DNA of 64,000 nucleotides from an archaeon (GTDB lineage: Archaea; Nanobdellota; Nanobdellia; Woesearchaeales; GW2011-AR9), in contig JAHFQW010000004.1 of NCBI GenBank assembly GCA_023259115.1, forward strand, positions 12,768-76,767. Reading direction: 5' to 3'. The translations under genes and the position numbers were made by a program. Positions 14,200-60,832 of this stretch are shown piece by piece. The notes below the pieces were generated by a model. It saw nothing but the letters and a program-made list of their open reading frames with translations, had not been told where the DNA came from and did not search any database. Numbering within the stretch: position 1 is the stretch's first letter; each line of letters opens with the position of its first letter.

Positions 14200-14610
14200 A
14201 TGGTTACATTTCAATTCATACCCTATCAAGACATTGATACACTCACCTCCGCCAAACGTATCAACAAACTTCTTAATATTGTCAAAGACAACCGCATTGT
14301 CATCATGGAAGGTCGCCTAACTAAACAAGAAGAAGCCGACTTAATCGAAATCACCATGGAAGAAATTGGTCCAAAATTCAAAGGCATTGAACTCAGCGTC
14401 ATCTACCCCGACAAAAACACCCAAGACGTCGGACAAAAACTCAAAAACACCTTTGCCAGCATTCTCTTAGGCGACCGTCTTGGCTTAACCATAATTGGCC
14501 CAGCATCCATTGTCAAAAAGATTGAAAAAAATCCCGATAAAATCGAATTATTCACCAAAGAACTCTCCGCCAACATCGGCCGCTTCACCAAAAAAGCCAA
14601 GTATGGTTAA
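14200..14610 (+). CDS. conserved archaeal hypothetical protein (DUF2073-like, by recollection)
   Basis: Small ORF between a GTPase and a Zn-ribbon protein. This gene order is, as I recall, conserved in archaea. Confidence 0.4.
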   Translation: MVTFQFIPYQDIDTLTSAKRINKLLNIVKDNRIVIMEGRLTKQEEADLIEITMEEIGPKFKGIELSVIYPDKNTQDVGQKLKNTFASILLGDRLGLTIIGPASIVKKIEKNPDKIELFTKELSANIGRFTKKAKYG

Positions 14611-14755
14611 TTTGAACCATCTGTATAGTAAATGTGTGAAATAATCGAATAGTAACCCATTTACTTACTAGTAATAGTAAACAAGCATTCCAAAATTATT
14701 CACCATTACTATATAAACCAACTAAATTTATATAGTACTTCACCAACCACACACC

Positions 14756-15136
14756 ATGCCCCACCAATGCGTTCGTTGCAACAACTTCTATGAAGATGGC
14801 TCTCAAGAAATTCTAAAAGGTTGTCCTTGTGGCGCAAAATTATTCTTCTACATCAAAAAACAACAACTAGACAAATCCACCAAAGAATTCATCACCAATT
14901 TCACTGACGAAGAAAAACAGCAAATTGAACACGACATCAAAGAAATCCTCCACGTCAAAGAAGAACTCGATAATCCCGTTGTCCTTGATCTAGAATCCAT
15001 CCGCGTTCTCCAGCCCGGAAAATATGAACTCGACCTCGTCCACCTATTCAAAAAAGACCCACTAATCATCAAATTAGACGAAGGAAAATATATGATTGAT
15101 CTGCCTCAGGCATTTAAAAAAGAAGAAAAGAAATGA
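14756..15136 (+). CDS. Zn-ribbon protein
   Basis: N-terminal CxxC...CPC pattern (HQCVRCNNFYEDGSQEILKGCPCG). Confidence 0.5.
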   Translation: MPHQCVRCNNFYEDGSQEILKGCPCGAKLFFYIKKQQLDKSTKEFITNFTDEEKQQIEHDIKEILHVKEELDNPVVLDLESIRVLQPGKYELDLVHLFKKDPLIIKLDEGKYMIDLPQAFKKEEKK

Positions 15137-17494: not shown

Positions 17495-17630
17495 AACCCT
17501 AAAAAAGAATCCAGCTTTAAAAAGATTACGTTTCACAACATCCCATGAACCTAGATAACCTACAATAAATCCCACAAAAGCAAACAAAAAGCAAATTTTA
17601 TAAAGAAATCACCTCCCTAACCCCCTAAAT

Positions 17631-17799
17631 GCACCGGTTGTATAATGGCTATTATGCCGGCCTTCCATGTACGAAGGCCCGACTGCCTAACTGAGGCAAG
17701 CCGGTGATCCGGGTTCGAAAGAAGAGGTTTCGCGTAGAAAATCCAATTGGTTAGCATCCTAGATGTCGTAAAACCTGTCTCGAAAGTCCCGGCCGGTGC
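17631..17799 (+). tRNA. tRNA-Gly (anticodon TCC) with two introns. Intron 1 is at the canonical 37/38 position (17668..17698). Intron 2 is in the T-loop after position 60 (17721..17786).
   Basis: Acceptor GCACCGG/CCGGTGC plus A73. D-arm with GG. Anticodon stem CCGGC/GCCGG with loop CTTCCA|A. T-stem CCGGG/CCCGG with T-loop TTCGAAA. The 3' T-stem strand only appears 66 nt downstream. Confidence 0.7.
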
Positions 17800-17929
17800 A
17801 TCATTTTACATTCATCTATTTCTAAAAACACTCCTCTCAACAAACCTCCCCCAGATTCTTTTAAATAATACCCACTTCAGAATAAAAACAACCACATTTA
17901 TATACTAATAGTTATTACTCTTAAAAAAA

Positions 17930-24998: not shown

Positions 24999-28295
<3,297 letters not shown>

Positions 28296-47682: not shown

Positions 47683-47834
47683 CGGGCCGGACGGGACTGT
47701 CTCAACACGTCGCAATTGCTCCATGCTGTTTCGAACCCGCGACCGCTTGATAGCTTCTGTCTGTTATGACATCTCTGTCACAAGACCCACTTGACGTAAA
47801 AGTCAAGCGCTCTACCAAGCTGAGCTACCGGCCC
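47683..47834 (-). tRNA. tRNA-Lys (anticodon TTT) with two introns. Intron 1 is at 37/38 (47752..47796). Intron 2 is in the T-loop (47696..47728).
   Basis: Acceptor GGGCCGG/CCGGCCC plus G73. D-arm GCTC-AGCTTGGTA-GAGC. Anticodon stem CTTGA/TCAAG with loop CTTTTA|A. The intron carries GTCAAG, which can pair with the anticodon region. T-stem GCGGG/CCCGT (G-U) with T-loop TTCGAAA. Confidence 0.7.
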
Positions 47835-47837
47835 ATA

Positions 47838-47986
47838 CGCCTTGGCCGGGACTTTCACACCAACACATTAAGTGTAATAGGTATTCGAACCCGGGTCGGG
47901 GCCTTTCTTAAGCAGCATGGAAATAAGTATGAACCCTTCCACCCACCTCGACAGGGCCCCATGCTAGGCCGCTACACTACCAAGGC
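47838..47986 (-). tRNA. tRNA-Asp (anticodon GTC) with two introns. Intron 1 is at 37/38 (47905..47948). Intron 2 is in the T-loop (47851..47882).
   Basis: Acceptor GCCTTGG/CCAAGGC plus G73. D-loop AGCGGCCTA. Anticodon stem GGGCC/GGCCC with loop CTGTCG|A. T-stem CCGGG/CCCGG with T-loop TTCGAAT. Only 3 nt separate it from tRNA-Lys. Confidence 0.7.
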
Positions 47987-49623: not shown

Positions 49624-49771
49624 GCGGTAGTAGTACAGTGGTTAGTATACGGCCTTGCCATAGACTAATCTTACACAGACTACAAACAGGCTGTGACCCG
49701 AGTTCGAATATGTCACGTGAACAAAAGTAATCATAACAGATCACGCCACATCGACTGTCTCGGCTACCGCA
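49624..49771 (+). tRNA. tRNA-Gly (anticodon GCC) with two introns. Intron 1 is at 37/38 (49661..49687). Intron 2 is in the T-loop (49710..49758).
   Basis: Acceptor GCGGTAG/CTACCGC plus A73. D-arm GTAC-AGTGGTTA-GTAT. Anticodon stem CGGCC/GGCTG with loop TTGCCA|A. T-stem CCGAG/CTCGG with T-loop TTCGAAT. Confidence 0.7.
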
Positions 49772-51800: not shown

Positions 51801-52187
51801 CTACTCCAAAAACAGCACTCCTTTCTCCGACTTAAAATGCGGGTCCCCTGTAACTATTTTTCCTCCCACCCTTCTTGCTAATACTAAGACAAACGCATCC
51901 GCAAGTCCAAACCCCGGAACTTTAGCACGAGTCTGGGCATGAATTAATCCCACTTCTTTGCAAAAATCAGCATCAGCAGGAATAATTTGAGATAATCCTT
52001 GTATCGCTCGAAAAGCAGCTTCGCCATCAAAACCTTTTCTTTTTATTCGACTCACCACCTCAGCCATAGTTACCGCATGTGTGAGAATTTCATGGTTTGA
52101 AAACAGCAATCCTTTTACAATATATCCCTGAGAACTTCCTTCCAAATATTCTATCCAAGCATAGGCATCAATGACAAATTTAGTCAT
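51801..52187 (-). CDS. vapC: PIN-domain toxin VapC
   Basis: N-terminal FVIDAYAWIEYL (conserved Asp) and C-terminal DAFVLVLARRVGGKIVTGDPHF. Confidence 0.75.
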   Translation of the reverse strand: MTKFVIDAYAWIEYLEGSSQGYIVKGLLFSNHEILTHAVTMAEVVSRIKRKGFDGEAAFRAIQGLSQIIPADADFCKEVGLIHAQTRAKVPGFGLADAFVLVLARRVGGKIVTGDPHFKSEKGVLFLE

Positions 52188-57517: not shown

Positions 57518-57730
57518 ATGAGCGAAATAATAAGCATATCTGATGATGTATATACAGAACTCACCAGAATCAAACAACAAGAGAGCTACTCAGTTGTCAT
57601 TCGTAAACTCCTTCATAATCAAAGCAATAAAGAAAAAATCCTCTCATTTTACGGTAAAGGCGGTATCGAAAAAGAAAAAATAAAATCACTAGACAAAGAG
57701 TGGCAACAATGGTCAAAAAAATATGTCTAG
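57518..57730 (+). CDS. vapB: VapB-family antitoxin (PF02697-like)
   Basis: ISISDDVYTELTRIKQQESYSVVIRKLL. A TATA box (GATTTATATATA) lies ~25 nt upstream, so the transcript is leaderless. Confidence 0.6.
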   Translation: MSEIISISDDVYTELTRIKQQESYSVVIRKLLHNQSNKEKILSFYGKGGIEKEKIKSLDKEWQQWSKKYV

Positions 57731-58086
57731 ATTCTGACATCATTATAAACCTCCTCCATGGAGAGCCGAAAACCAAACAACTTCTAGAAAAACTAGACGC
57801 AGAATTTTTCATGACCACCATCAACTCATTCGAAATCTGGCAAGGCCGCAAAAATAACGAACTCATCTTTGAATTTTTAGAAAGTACCCCTCTTCTTGCA
57901 TTTGATCAAAAGGCCGCATTAAAAGCCGGAGATATAACCAAAGATCTCAGAAAACAGGGCAATCCCCTTGAAATACGTGATGTGTTTATAGCCGCCATTT
58001 GCATTACGCAAAACATTGAATTACTTACCCTCAACAAAAAACACTTTGAACGATTAGAAAAATATGGATTAATACTAACAAAGTAA
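57700..58086 (+). CDS. vapC: PIN-domain toxin VapC
   Basis: KICLDSDIIINLL and DVFIAAICITQNIELLTLNKKHFERL. The true start is probably the Met at 57709; it overlaps the antitoxin end. Confidence 0.7.
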   Translation: MATMVKKICLDSDIIINLLHGEPKTKQLLEKLDAEFFMTTINSFEIWQGRKNNELIFEFLESTPLLAFDQKAALKAGDITKDLRKQGNPLEIRDVFIAAICITQNIELLTLNKKHFERLEKYGLILTK

Positions 58087-58102: not shown

Positions 58103-60832
58103 TCACAACCCCAATCTCCCCAGAATCACATCCGCATCAAACTTCTCTAAATCTGTATACTCCTGACCTACACCTAAAAATAAGATAGGCTTCTTAATTG
58201 TATATGCAATCGATAATGGCGCCCCACCTTTCTCATCCACATCTACTTTTGTTAAAATTGCCCCATCCATCTCAACCAAAGAATTAAACTGGCGTGCCTG
58301 TTCAATACAATCATTTCCCGTAATACTCTCACCTACAAAAAGCTTCAAATCTGGCTTCACCACTCGAATAATCTTCCCCAACTCCGCCATTAAATTAGTA
58401 TTCGAATGCAACCTTCCCGCCGTATCAATCAACACCACATCAATCTTATTCTTAATCGCATACTGCACCGCATCAAATGCTACTGCCGCCGCATCACTTC
58501 CATAATCCTGTTGAATCATCTTCACTCCCAGCTTTTTCGCATGTTCACCTAACTGCTGAATTGCTGCTGCCCGAAACGTATCACACGCCGCAAGCACCAC
58601 AGAAAGACCTTGCTGCTGCAAATGATACGTCAACTTCGCAATCGACGTCGTCTTCCCCGTTCCATTGATACCAAAAAACGCAATAACATACGGCTTCTGC
58701 TTTTTCGCAGCTATCCTCTCACTCAACTCTGTAGATTCAAACGCTAATATTTCGCGTAACGTCCCCTCTAGAGTTTTATGAATCTTCTCACCCACATCCC
58801 ACGGCAACGGCTTACCTACCAATTCATGGCCCAAATCAACTTTAATTTTCTCTATCACTTCAACAGAAACATTATTCTCAAGTAACGCAAGTTCCAAATC
58901 CCAAAACAACTCCTCAAACTTCTCCGAAGAAATCGTTCGAGACGTAATCGTTTCTTTAATCTTGCCAAAAATAGTCTTCTTCTGTGGTTCTTGCAAAATC
59001 TCCCCATCAACCTCTTTAACTTTAGAATCTTTAACTTTAGACACATTAAATTCAATATCACTTTTCTCAGGGAGAGAAACTGGTTTTTCTTTTATGTTCT
59101 CTTCTTGCATCCTCTCATCAAACTCTTCCTCAACATTCTTCTTAAAAGAAAACGTCTCTTTCAACTTCCCCAAAAAACTTTTTTTCTGCTCACGAACCTC
59201 TTCTCTTTGTGCAATCCCTGAAATATCTACTGTATGTTCAATAGCATAATCCCACCCTAATTGAAATGCTCTTCGTAACCTCCAATCTTGGGCAATCGCC
59301 TGCTCCCACGTTTTCTGCTTCAACAAAACATCCAATGCCAACTGCGGTGCCTGATGCGCCACAATCGCTACATGCTTCCCATAATAATTCTCAAATAGAA
59401 AATTAACAAACTCTGCCATTCTTTTCTCTACATCATGATAACTCTCCCCGTTTGGAAATGTTTCACCAACATACTCACCCATCCTCTCTTTAAACAAACT
59501 CGCTTTCTCACCGTTAAAATCGCCATAATTTGCCTCTCTCAAACGTGCATCTTCAATAATAGGAATATTTCTGTCCGGAAACATTAATTTGGCAGAATCA
59601 ACTGCTCGTTTCAAATCAGAACAAAACACCACCTCAAAATTGTGACTTCGTAATTTTATTGCTGACTCTTTTGATTGTGTAATTCCTAATATTGAAAGCT
59701 CACCAGGATTCCAACCTGTTGCGATATCCCGTTCATTATCCGTTGTTGTACCATGAACAAAATACGTAATTTTCACACCATTGATTTCTTCAGAAACATG
59801 ATCCTCCCCCGTTTCTTTCATAGTTTCTTGACTGACATCTAATGATTTATTTTTTTGAACAACCGCTTCTTTCTTCTCACCTTTTTCTCGTTTTTCCTGC
59901 TCTCTCACCTTCGCAAAATGCTCCATCTGTTGAGCTAACACACTTTTCTTATCAGACAATTTTGAAGAATGAGTAATTTCTTTTTCTTTATGATCAAAAA
60001 CGCCAACTTTAAAATCTCGTGCAAATAATTCTTCTAAAATAGCCAATCTTTTTACACCTTCACTCTCAGTCATATGAGCATAGTTCTCAAAAACTTGAAT
60101 TTCTGCAACATCCTTGAATGAATTGATGTAAAAATCTCTTATTTCATCCGTAATCCACGGATCTTTTAGACCAAAAACAAACGCCATTTCATCTACATTA
60201 TTTTTTATTTTTTTAAAATCCAATCCTCTATCTTGGAATTCTCTAAAAACACGTAATTCCTCTGAATTCAGATTCTTCCCAAATAATTTAAAATAATCTT
60301 GAGACGGTTTTGCGCCAACGGGAGCCACCATGATTAACTTTTTTACTTTATATCTCTCGGCTAATTTTAATGCCAGTAGGCCCCCCATACTATGTCCCAC
60401 CAGATTTAAGTTATCTTTATTTGCTTGAACAATCTTTTTTTCAGCAAAAGAAAACCATTTTTCAAAAGTAGGTTTATCACTATCTGGCTGGTCAAATGAT
60501 TCAGCAACATACTCTTTTTTATGTAAATATTCTTTTAATTTTGGGATAAAACCAGATTGAGAATTATCATCCCACCCATGAAAAATTAAAACATGTTCTC
60601 TTTCCTTTTTTCCACCAGATACCCCCTCATTTTTTTTAACTGGAGCAACAACCTTCTCTTCTTTTTTGACAGATTCAACTTGTTTCACAACTTGTTTCTC
60701 AACAGTTATAGGAATCTTTTCCTCAGAAACTTCTTTCTCCACTTCCCGCTGCGTAACTTCCGCCTCTTCCTCCGCCTTGCGAGAAAAAATCGACAACGCG
60801 CTCTTCAGCTTATCTTTGAATTTACCAAACAT
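58103..60832 (-). CDS. ftsY: signal recognition particle receptor FtsY, as a single 909-aa ORF. The N-terminal ~550 aa contain an alpha/beta-hydrolase (esterase) domain and a histidine-phosphatase (PGM-family) domain.
   Basis: C-terminal NG domain: IAFFGINGTGKTTSIAKL, DTFRAAAIQQL, LIDTAGRLH and TKVDVDEKGGAPLS. N-terminal part: LIFHGW...VGHSMGGLLALKLA (GxSxG esterase) and ITYFVHGTTTDNERDIATGWNPGELSILG...VFCSDLKRAVDSA (RHG-phosphatase-like). Confidence 0.8.
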   Translation of the reverse strand: MFGKFKDKLKSALSIFSRKAEEEAEVTQREVEKEVSEEKIPITVEKQVVKQVESVKKEEKVVAPVKKNEGVSGGKKEREHVLIFHGWDDNSQSGFIPKLKEYLHKKEYVAESFDQPDSDKPTFEKWFSFAEKKIVQANKDNLNLVGHSMGGLLALKLAERYKVKKLIMVAPVGAKPSQDYFKLFGKNLNSEELRVFREFQDRGLDFKKIKNNVDEMAFVFGLKDPWITDEIRDFYINSFKDVAEIQVFENYAHMTESEGVKRLAILEELFARDFKVGVFDHKEKEITHSSKLSDKKSVLAQQMEHFAKVREQEKREKGEKKEAVVQKNKSLDVSQETMKETGEDHVSEEINGVKITYFVHGTTTDNERDIATGWNPGELSILGITQSKESAIKLRSHNFEVVFCSDLKRAVDSAKLMFPDRNIPIIEDARLREANYGDFNGEKASLFKERMGEYVGETFPNGESYHDVEKRMAEFVNFLFENYYGKHVAIVAHQAPQLALDVLLKQKTWEQAIAQDWRLRRAFQLGWDYAIEHTVDISGIAQREEVREQKKSFLGKLKETFSFKKNVEEEFDERMQEENIKEKPVSLPEKSDIEFNVSKVKDSKVKEVDGEILQEPQKKTIFGKIKETITSRTISSEKFEELFWDLELALLENNVSVEVIEKIKVDLGHELVGKPLPWDVGEKIHKTLEGTLREILAFESTELSERIAAKKQKPYVIAFFGINGTGKTTSIAKLTYHLQQQGLSVVLAACDTFRAAAIQQLGEHAKKLGVKMIQQDYGSDAAAVAFDAVQYAIKNKIDVVLIDTAGRLHSNTNLMAELGKIIRVVKPDLKLFVGESITGNDCIEQARQFNSLVEMDGAILTKVDVDEKGGAPLSIAYTIKKPILFLGVGQEYTDLEKFDADVILGRLGL

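Follow-up and report, generated by a model that had tools for sequence, protein, structure and literature searches.

Does a stretch of archaeal genome in which the usual predictors find no tRNA gene really lack such genes, or does it carry them in a form that these programs do not recognise? The question is raised by a stretch of 64,000 nucleotides (nt) from a genome of the Woesearchaeales (GenBank assembly GCA_023259115.1, contig JAHFQW010000004.1, positions 12,768 to 76,767), which as a whole is called the window below. ARAGORN reports zero genes in the raw window, whether run without introns or with canonical introns of up to 100 nt, and with lowered thresholds it gives either nothing or noise only; Rfam has no match at gathering thresholds, and under permissive thresholds its tRNA covariance model scores 20.4 bits at best (cutoff 29), with a mis-structured alignment at a locus that we assign to tRNA-Lys. 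An earlier examination of the letters, made without database searches (the sequence-only reading), had proposed that the window contains four tRNA genes, that all of them carry two introns and that they can be folded solely after both inserts have been removed. Our analysis bears this out: these are very probably four functional tRNA genes, for Gly(UCC), Gly(GCC), Asp(GUC) and Lys(UUU), and each precursor would be relieved by protein enzymes of two introns of the bulge-helix-bulge (BHB) type, one at position 37/38 of the anticodon loop and one at position 59/60 of the T-loop.

Detection and structure of the interrupted genes

When the two inserts of each locus are excised by hand, ARAGORN calls Gly(tcc), Gly(gcc), Asp(gtc) and Lys(ttt), all of them as perfect cloverleaves. 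The same four loci, and no others, were returned by a stringent scan of both strands that is independent of any predictor and demanded U8, G53/C61, T54-Y55-C56-R57-A58, a T-loop insert of either 0 or 10-199 nt, a T-stem with 5/5 pairs (at least three of them GC) and an acceptor stem with 7/7 pairs; none of the four has an uninterrupted T-loop. As just these four loci were returned, chance is excluded, and there is no further tRNA gene of such architecture in the window. Two looser structural scans for more interrupted tRNAs gave noise only. The exon and intron coordinates were checked programmatically, and no split or permuted gene was found among the four, the exons of each being collinear within 148-170 nt.

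The tRNA-Gly(UCC) gene lies on the plus strand at 17631-17800 (exons 17631-17667, 17699-17719 and 17787-17800; CCA is not encoded) and contains introns of 31 nt at 37/38 (17668-17698) and 67 nt at 59/60 (17720-17786). The tRNA-Gly(GCC) gene, also on the plus strand, covers 49624-49771 (exons 49624-49660, 49688-49708 and 49758-49771), its introns measuring 27 nt at 37/38 (49661-49687) and 49 nt at 59/60 (49709-49757). On the minus strand, tRNA-Asp(GUC) at 47986-47838 (exons 47986-47949, 47904-47884 and 47851-47838; introns of 44 nt at 37/38, 47948-47905, and 32 nt at 59/60, 47883-47852) is followed 3 nt downstream by tRNA-Lys(UUU) at 47834-47683 (exons 47834-47797, 47751-47730 and 47696-47683; introns of 45 nt at 37/38, 47796-47752, and 33 nt at 59/60, 47729-47697), just as these two genes had been described, namely as neighbours on that strand. 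The lengths of 27-45 nt that had been given for the introns at 37/38 are correct; those of the T-loop introns, given as 32-66 nt, reach 67 nt in Gly(UCC).

Position and geometry of the two introns

The exact place of the cuts was assessed by a register test for the BHB motif, consisting of an outer helix, a central helix of 4 base pairs (bp), two 3-nt bulges that are each cut after the second nucleotide, and an inner helix. A single register fits, 37/38 for the inserts of the anticodon loop and 59/60 for those of the T-loop, and it is found in all four genes; folding of the junctions into BHB or relaxed motifs had been named beforehand as a check on the proposal. The outer helix is complete (5/5) for all eight introns, and for the T-loop introns it is so only at 59/60. 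The central pairs formed by Gly(UCC), Gly(GCC), Asp and Lys, out of four possible, number 4, 3, 2 and 4 at 37/38, and 4, 3, 4 and 2 at 59/60, both helices of Gly(UCC) being complete at either intron (5/5 outer, 4/4 central). In the T-arm it is U54-G57 that enters the central helix, with the partners CGAA in Gly(UCC) (4/4), UGAA in Asp (UUCG/UGAA, 4/4), CGAC in Gly(GCC) (3/4) and AGAC in Lys (2/4). A58-A59^i1 and N-G^U60 make up the bulges, where i1 is the first intron nucleotide and the caret marks the cut. Splicing at 59/60 yields the mature T-loop UUCGAAU in all four genes.

In constrained folding, the inner helix of the T-loop intron is flush in Gly(GCC) and Lys and offset by 1 nt in Gly(UCC) and Asp; that of Lys has 7 bp by this method and 6 bp in the register test. 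Folding for the minimum free energy (MFE) without constraints recovers a BHB-like fold for both Gly T-arms. By their junction motifs the inserts belong to the archaeal BHB introns, several motifs being relaxed rather than strict, namely those of the Asp and Lys T-arms and that of Asp at 37/38. A cut between Sprinzl positions 59 and 60 is indicated by this register as well as by U60 in intron-less alleles and by the refined orthologues described below.

The sequence-only reading had placed the second intron of all four genes at one non-canonical T-loop site, directly after position 60; the site is indeed shared, but the junction lies 1 nt further upstream, at 59/60. The inserts had further been said to end in AGT in three genes and in TGT in Gly(GCC), which is true of the letters, but they only appear to end so because the final T is the exon nucleotide U60. 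The motif TCGAAAG does stand at both junctions of the Gly(UCC) T-loop intron (17715-17721 and 17780-17786), but this reflects a structural constraint and not a shared origin: TTCGAA is its own reverse complement, and the strand pairing with it therefore resembles a direct repeat. In the same way, YGAA plus an AG end followed by U60 is common to the introns because this motif pairs with the near-invariant, palindromic T-loop, and no common descent is needed.

Interrupted tRNA genes in related Woesearchaeota

For comparison, 80 related loci (about 1.2 Mb of DNA) were retrieved via the RpoB' fragment that adjoins the Asp-Lys pair; they are given here by L numbers (L001 etc.), and L081 and L082 denote orthologues of the Gly(UCC) gene from metagenomes. 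The RpoB' fragment of the window shows 90% identity to metagenome-assembled genomes (MAGs) labelled Woesearchaeota, and the GenBank titles of the 80 loci are mixed (Woesearchaeota, Nanoarchaeota and 'uncultured Methanosarcinales'). In the relatives the position of the Asp-Lys tandem upstream of rpoB is conserved; a spliced aligner followed by BHB refinement was run on this tandem, and nearly all of the products are recognised by ARAGORN as Asp(gtc) or Lys(ttt). The Asp gene has a 37/38 intron in 47 of 57 relatives and a 59/60 intron in 44 of 57; for the Lys gene, 59 of 71 relatives have an intron at 37/38, 22 of 71 at 59/60 and 8 of 71 in the D-loop. The lengths of these Asp and Lys introns range from 13 to 122 nt. 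A 59/60 intron is also present in 11 of 31 Gly(GCC) orthologues and in both L081 and L082 (83 and 22 nt).

Some of the nearest relatives carry alleles without the intron. The Lys T-loop intron is missing in L001, L002, L003 and L007, which read GGGTTCGAATCCCGT, the exact product of splicing at 59/60, and this fixes U60 as exon sequence. The Gly(GCC) gene of L002, the closest relative, has no T-loop intron and is identical over all 72 nt to the mature tRNA predicted for the window; for both Lys and Gly(GCC), intron-less orthologues hence equal the predicted ligated exons. The Asp T-loop intron of the window is itself shared, its 3' 16 nt being identical to the orthologues in L001 and L002.

Base pairing across the introns is maintained as well. 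Among 16 distinct Lys genes bearing the T-loop intron, 99.1% of the cloverleaf cells pair, and compensatory double changes affect seven pairs, five in the anticodon stem and two in the T-stem, each set lying across an intron; these values were matched by 0 of 500 shuffles. Since the stems covary across the introns, selection acts on the spliced molecule.

Over the 80 loci, 118 tRNA genes are detected by ARAGORN in its mode for canonical introns, and another 131 come to light only once a 59/60 insert has been taken out, so that roughly half of the detectable tRNA genes in these related Woesearchaeota carry a 59/60 intron. In a set of 129 non-redundant 59/60 introns, the four of the window included, the central helix has 4/4 pairs in 85 and 3/4 in 34; shuffled introns reach 4/4 in 2.5% and 3/4 in 17.6%, and the binomial P of the real excess is about 6e-103. 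Of these introns, 63 have AG^U at the 3' junction, 23 have AA^U and 19 have UG^U, and the 3' guide is TGAA in 56 and CGAA in 23.

Some relatives have introns of 16-29 nt at yet another recurrent site, the third, which lies in the D-arm or D-loop; they are found in the Lys gene of L046, L065, L069, L070, L075, L076, L078 and L079 and in the Gly(GCC) gene of L022, L044, L045 and L057. The tRNA-Lys gene of L079 has three introns (D-loop, 37/38 and 59/60).

Proposed splicing of the T-loop intron

Why should unrelated tRNAs be interrupted at the same place of the T-loop? We argue that the T-arm mimics the anticodon arm, 59/60 being the structural counterpart of 37/38: each arm has a 5-bp stem and a 7-nt loop, and the sixth and seventh nucleotides of the loop flank the intron. 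The T-stem of the precursor would serve as outer helix, and U54-G57 (UUCG or UUCA) would form the central helix by pairing with a YGAA guide that stands 2 nt before the 3' end of the intron; the 5' bulge would comprise A58-A59 and the first intron nucleotide, the 3' bulge U60 and the two nucleotides that close the intron (mostly AG). As to the enzymes and the order of cleavage, we infer that each bulge would be cut behind its second nucleotide by the splicing endonuclease EndA and that an RtcB-type ligase would join the exons into the UUCGAAU T-loop, CCA being added later. The T-loop is almost invariant among tRNAs, and an intron ending in YGAA-AG would therefore fit any of them; because such introns fit every tRNA, both the site and the junction motif would be common to unrelated isoacceptors.

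In each of the four genes, intron 1 belongs to the canonical 37/38 type with the full helix-bulge-helix-bulge-helix motif (hBHBh'), and intron 2 copies its geometry in the T-arm (stem of 5 bp, central helix with four nucleotides of the loop, cut between nucleotides 6 and 7). They differ in the partner of the central helix, which for intron 2 is the invariant T-loop and not the anticodon, for which reason the 3' guide of intron 2 is nearly the same (YGAA) in every tRNA.

Intron families and mobility

The sequence-only reading had considered the introns possibly mobile, which finds no support within the window but does find it in the relatives. Compared with each other, the eight introns of the window show no significant similarity, and no transposing family is recognisable among them. 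The best pair has a 10-nt identity, TCATAACAGA, between the Gly(GCC) T-loop intron (49731-49740) and the Lys 37/38 intron (47769-47760, minus strand); with E about 0.009 in a tiny database its significance is borderline, and it is probably due to chance. The sole external match of the window introns is the one between the Asp T-loop intron and its orthologues in L001 and L002.

Among the relatives, similar introns are found across different tRNA genes and across 37/38 and 59/60. The T-loop intron of Gly(GCC) in L042 resembles that of Lys in the same locus and that of Ile(UAU) in L035, the T-loop intron of Gly(UCC) in L081 resembles those of Ile(UAU) in L024 and L045, and in L060 the Asp gene has 37/38 and 59/60 introns that are similar to each other. 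The 59/60 intron of Asp in L003 has its body in common with the 37/38 intron of Asp in L045, L044, L036 and L030, and the 3' guides fit the respective site, CGAA-AG at 59/60 versus ACAG-CA at 37/38. Altogether, 18 intron pairs join genes that differ at three or more of seven acceptor-stem positions, compared with none in five shuffled controls. On a neighbour-joining tree of RpoB', the 59/60 character takes at least 16 changes for Lys and at least 8 for Asp, and presence or absence of introns in the relatives is highly homoplastic and patchy.

By sequence, the long introns of the relatives can be grouped into families whose internal hairpins are conserved, such as GGCGGGCATAAAGCCCACC and CAAGTGGGAT...ATCCCACGA with CTAGGCGA before it. 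These families are common to Gly, Lys, Ile, Asp, Thr and Tyr genes and occur at both 37/38 and 59/60; members are located in L042 at about 19989 and 9556, in the Asp gene of L060, in L035 at about 8416, in L045 at about 4138 (minus strand) and about 7205, in L081 at 1216-1300 and in L024 at about 1924.

Woesearchaeota might harbour families of BHB introns that are actively transposing and to which the near-invariant T-loop (UUCRAAU) would offer a universal landing site, a possibility that we put forward tentatively and would not yet bet on. What would suit the T-loop to this is the resemblance of the T-arm to the anticodon arm, and an exchange of the 4-nt 3' guide (ACAG-CA for the Asp anticodon loop versus CGAA-AG for the T-loop) would suffice for an intron to move between sites and tRNAs.

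Alternative explanations

Instead of being spliced, the loci could be decaying pseudogenes, or tRNA genes broken by random insertions or scars of mobile elements, as might be thought of loci that standard predictors reject. Decay would hardly leave the exons conserved and the stems covarying while the inserts vary freely (13-122 nt for Asp and Lys), nor would it place these inserts always at BHB-competent registers; in addition, all four tRNA genes detectable in 64 kb share the form with two inserts, and about half of the tRNA genes of the relatives are interrupted likewise, so that we give this explanation practically no credence. It is also very unlikely, if a little less extreme a proposition, that the T-loop intron is to be cut at 60/61, which would give a mature loop UUCGAAA in Gly(UCC) and Lys and inserts ending in AGT. 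ARAGORN accepts the cloverleaf obtained with this placement too, the products of Gly(GCC) and Asp are identical under both placements, and the free MFE of the Gly(GCC) T-arm even favours a register compatible with 60/61. At 60/61, however, the BHB motif collapses in all four genes (outer helix 1/5, central helix 0-1/4), whereas the intron-less Lys alleles of the nearest relatives have UUCGAAU, BHB refinement puts 44 of 44 Asp and 22 of 22 Lys T-loop introns at 59/60, and U60 follows 122 of the 129 surveyed introns. A more serious competitor concerns the origin of the introns: the T-loop introns of the window may be recent copies of one active mobile element, which would explain their common junction motif. 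The families of the relatives, which span different tRNAs as well as 37/38 and 59/60, speak for such copies, as do the patchy distribution (Lys 59/60 in 22 of 71 relatives, with the at least 16 changes mentioned) and the absence of the window's Lys T-loop intron from its nearest relatives. Against them stand the lack of significant similarity among the eight introns, whose best pair is the 10-nt identity with E about 0.009, the fact that the only outside match is the orthologous Asp intron, and the YGAA-AG end, which is fully accounted for by pairing to the invariant T-loop; we regard recent copies of a single element as rather improbable.

The reading that we prefer, four functional genes spliced at 37/38 and 59/60, has several points to contend with as well. 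Unconstrained MFE folds of the Asp and Lys T-arms contain no central helix, the Lys T-loop intron and the Asp 37/38 intron form 2/4 central pairs each, and in Gly(GCC) the placements 59/60 and 60/61 yield the same product and are indistinguishable from it. The inner helix is perfectly flush in only 17 of the 129 introns and offset by 1-2 nt in 60; most motifs are therefore slightly relaxed, and their cleavage presupposes a tolerant enzyme. No EndA or RtcB domain was found by Pfam in the window's open reading frames (ORFs) of at least 120 amino acids (about 50 ORFs). The anticodon labels of ARAGORN in intron mode are unreliable (the Gly(UCC) gene of the window is called Ala-UGC), which is why the tRNA identities of the survey were re-derived by BHB-guided splicing, and a few of its 131 additional genes are probably chimeric calls.

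Splicing endonuclease and the long glycine intron

A splicing endonuclease with relaxed specificity, as suggested by the sequence-only reading, is plausible because the T-loop motifs of Asp and Lys are weak or offset and most motifs of the relatives are imperfect. A tblastn search with an approximate sequence of the EndA of M. jannaschii gave no match in the window or the 80 loci.

The long T-loop intron of Gly(UCC) had been thought long enough to encode a small RNA, an idea that we reject for this 67-nt intron, since C/D boxes, an Rfam family and conservation are all absent. With RUGAUGA as C box and CUGA as D box, no C box is present in any of the eight window introns, Rfam searches of the introns with permissive E-values gave nothing relevant, and the orthologous Gly(UCC) introns of 83 and 22 nt have no BLAST match to that of the window at word size 7.

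Relation to known archaeal tRNA introns

Position 59/60 is among the listed non-canonical positions of tRNA introns (PMC4090602), and up to three introns per tRNA gene are known (PMC3239211). In ARMAN-2 (Micrarchaeota), the pre-tRNA-Cys(GCA) has a 59/60 intron with an hBH motif that is cleaved in vitro by the epsilon2 EndA, and the pre-tRNA-Pro(GGG) has introns at 53/54 and 59/60 (Fujishima et al. 2011, PMC3239211). This system, which likewise belongs to DPANN (Diapherotrites, Parvarchaeota, Aenigmarchaeota, Nanoarchaeota, Nanohaloarchaeota), resembles ours in the T-loop site, in the BHB or relaxed hBH motif and in the presence of other introns in the same gene. It differs in that few genes use the site, compared with all four tRNA genes of the window and about half of those in related Woesearchaeota, and in that the enzyme there is the three-unit epsilon2 EndA. 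Multi-intron tRNA genes and transposition of introns have been described for the Thermoproteales (Sugahara 2008; Fujishima 2010; as summarised in the reviews PMC4033280 and PMC4090602). They share with our case up to three introns per gene at canonical and non-canonical sites including 59/60, and similar introns in different tRNA species with rapid gain and loss, the pattern also seen in the window's relatives. However, they are hyperthermophiles of the TACK group (Thaumarchaeota, Aigarchaeota, Crenarchaeota, Korarchaeota) and not of DPANN, have an (alpha-beta)2 EndA with a crenarchaeal loop and use many intron positions, whereas the sampled Woesearchaeota concentrate on 37/38, 59/60 and one D-arm site. 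For DPANN lineages, alpha4-type EndAs with an L3 loop have been reported; the survey in question, which included one Woesearchaeote, linked the L3-loop EndAs of DPANN with more disruption of tRNA genes, and undetected disrupted genes were already suspected behind the incomplete tRNA sets of DPANN and Asgard archaea (Kaneta et al. 2018, PMC5829648).

An intron class specific to the lineage, as had been suggested, is therefore not what we see, position 59/60 having been published from outside it, in the Thermoproteales and ARMAN-2. The site, multi-intron tRNAs and intron transposition are all published, and our case is a well-supported further instance of a known phenomenon, which leaves the current picture of archaeal tRNA splicing unchanged. 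The pervasiveness of 59/60 across Woesearchaeota seems to be little documented in the literature searched, and features of the Thermoproteales and ARMAN-2 (heavy disruption, 59/60 introns, intron families across tRNAs) are here extended to a large DPANN order, together with a structural reason for the preference of 59/60, namely a T-arm that would mimic the anticodon arm and has an invariant loop. Annotation with ARAGORN or Rfam/Infernal would report no tRNA genes in the window and miss about half of those in related Woesearchaeota; 'missing tRNAs' in DPANN can therefore be an annotation artefact rather than reduced coding capacity. Should the transposing families prove true, this lineage, for which hundreds of MAGs exist and whose introns are often polymorphic for presence or absence, would be a tractable natural system for studying the mechanism by which BHB introns are gained, one candidate being reverse splicing by EndA/RtcB and then reverse transcription and recombination. 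Whether T-loop introns shield tRNA genes from integrating elements could be tested there as well.

Expression signals and gene content of the window

A TATA-like box, TTTTATAAAG, can be read on the plus strand at 17596-17605, about 30 nt upstream of the 5' end of Gly(UCC), and a T-run, TCATTTT, directly follows the gene (17801-17807, plus strand); going by general knowledge of archaeal promoters, we take them to be promoter and terminator. A promoter-like TATA box, TTTATTAA, stands about 30 nt upstream of Gly(GCC) on the plus strand, a run of seven T downstream of the gene, and a putative T-run terminator after the Lys gene at about 47678-47674 (minus strand). With TATA-like boxes at both Gly genes and T-runs after Gly(UCC), Gly(GCC) and Lys, the four genes would be expected to be expressed, Asp and Lys probably as one transcript, as the spacer of 3 nt suggests.

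The proteins encoded in the window correspond to a set of archaeal core genes, with a split RpoB, RpoA'/A'', NusA, S12 and S7, and include AlaRS, Kae1, a radical-SAM enzyme of wyosine synthesis, SMC and a GyrB that bears an intein. In the gene of this DNA gyrase B (24999-28286, minus strand), the intein splicing domain comprises residues 468-891, between the GyrB and Toprim domains. The two strands of the window are extremely asymmetric: the plus strand counts 16,789 C versus 8,357 G, a GC skew of -0.34 that runs through genes of both orientations. A skew of comparable magnitude is found only in the nearest relatives L001, L002, L003, L017 and L020 (0.26-0.35 when taken in rpoB orientation), against a median of 0.09 for all 80 loci. 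Genes for OapB and OapC (origin-associated protein) stand side by side at 14200-15136 (plus strand) and hint at a replication origin nearby; a quick search for origin-like repeats between the genes at 31.9-32.6 kb, where the DNA is rich in AT, brought up nothing clear. An ORF of 909 amino acids (58103-60832, minus strand) fuses a serine hydrolase (alpha/beta hydrolase), a histidine phosphatase and an FtsY/SRP54-type GTPase domain, an N-terminal extension that is unusual for a receptor of the signal recognition particle. The AlaRS region is flanked by two small PIN-domain (VapC-like) proteins, encoded at 51801-52187 (minus strand) and 57700-58086 (plus strand).

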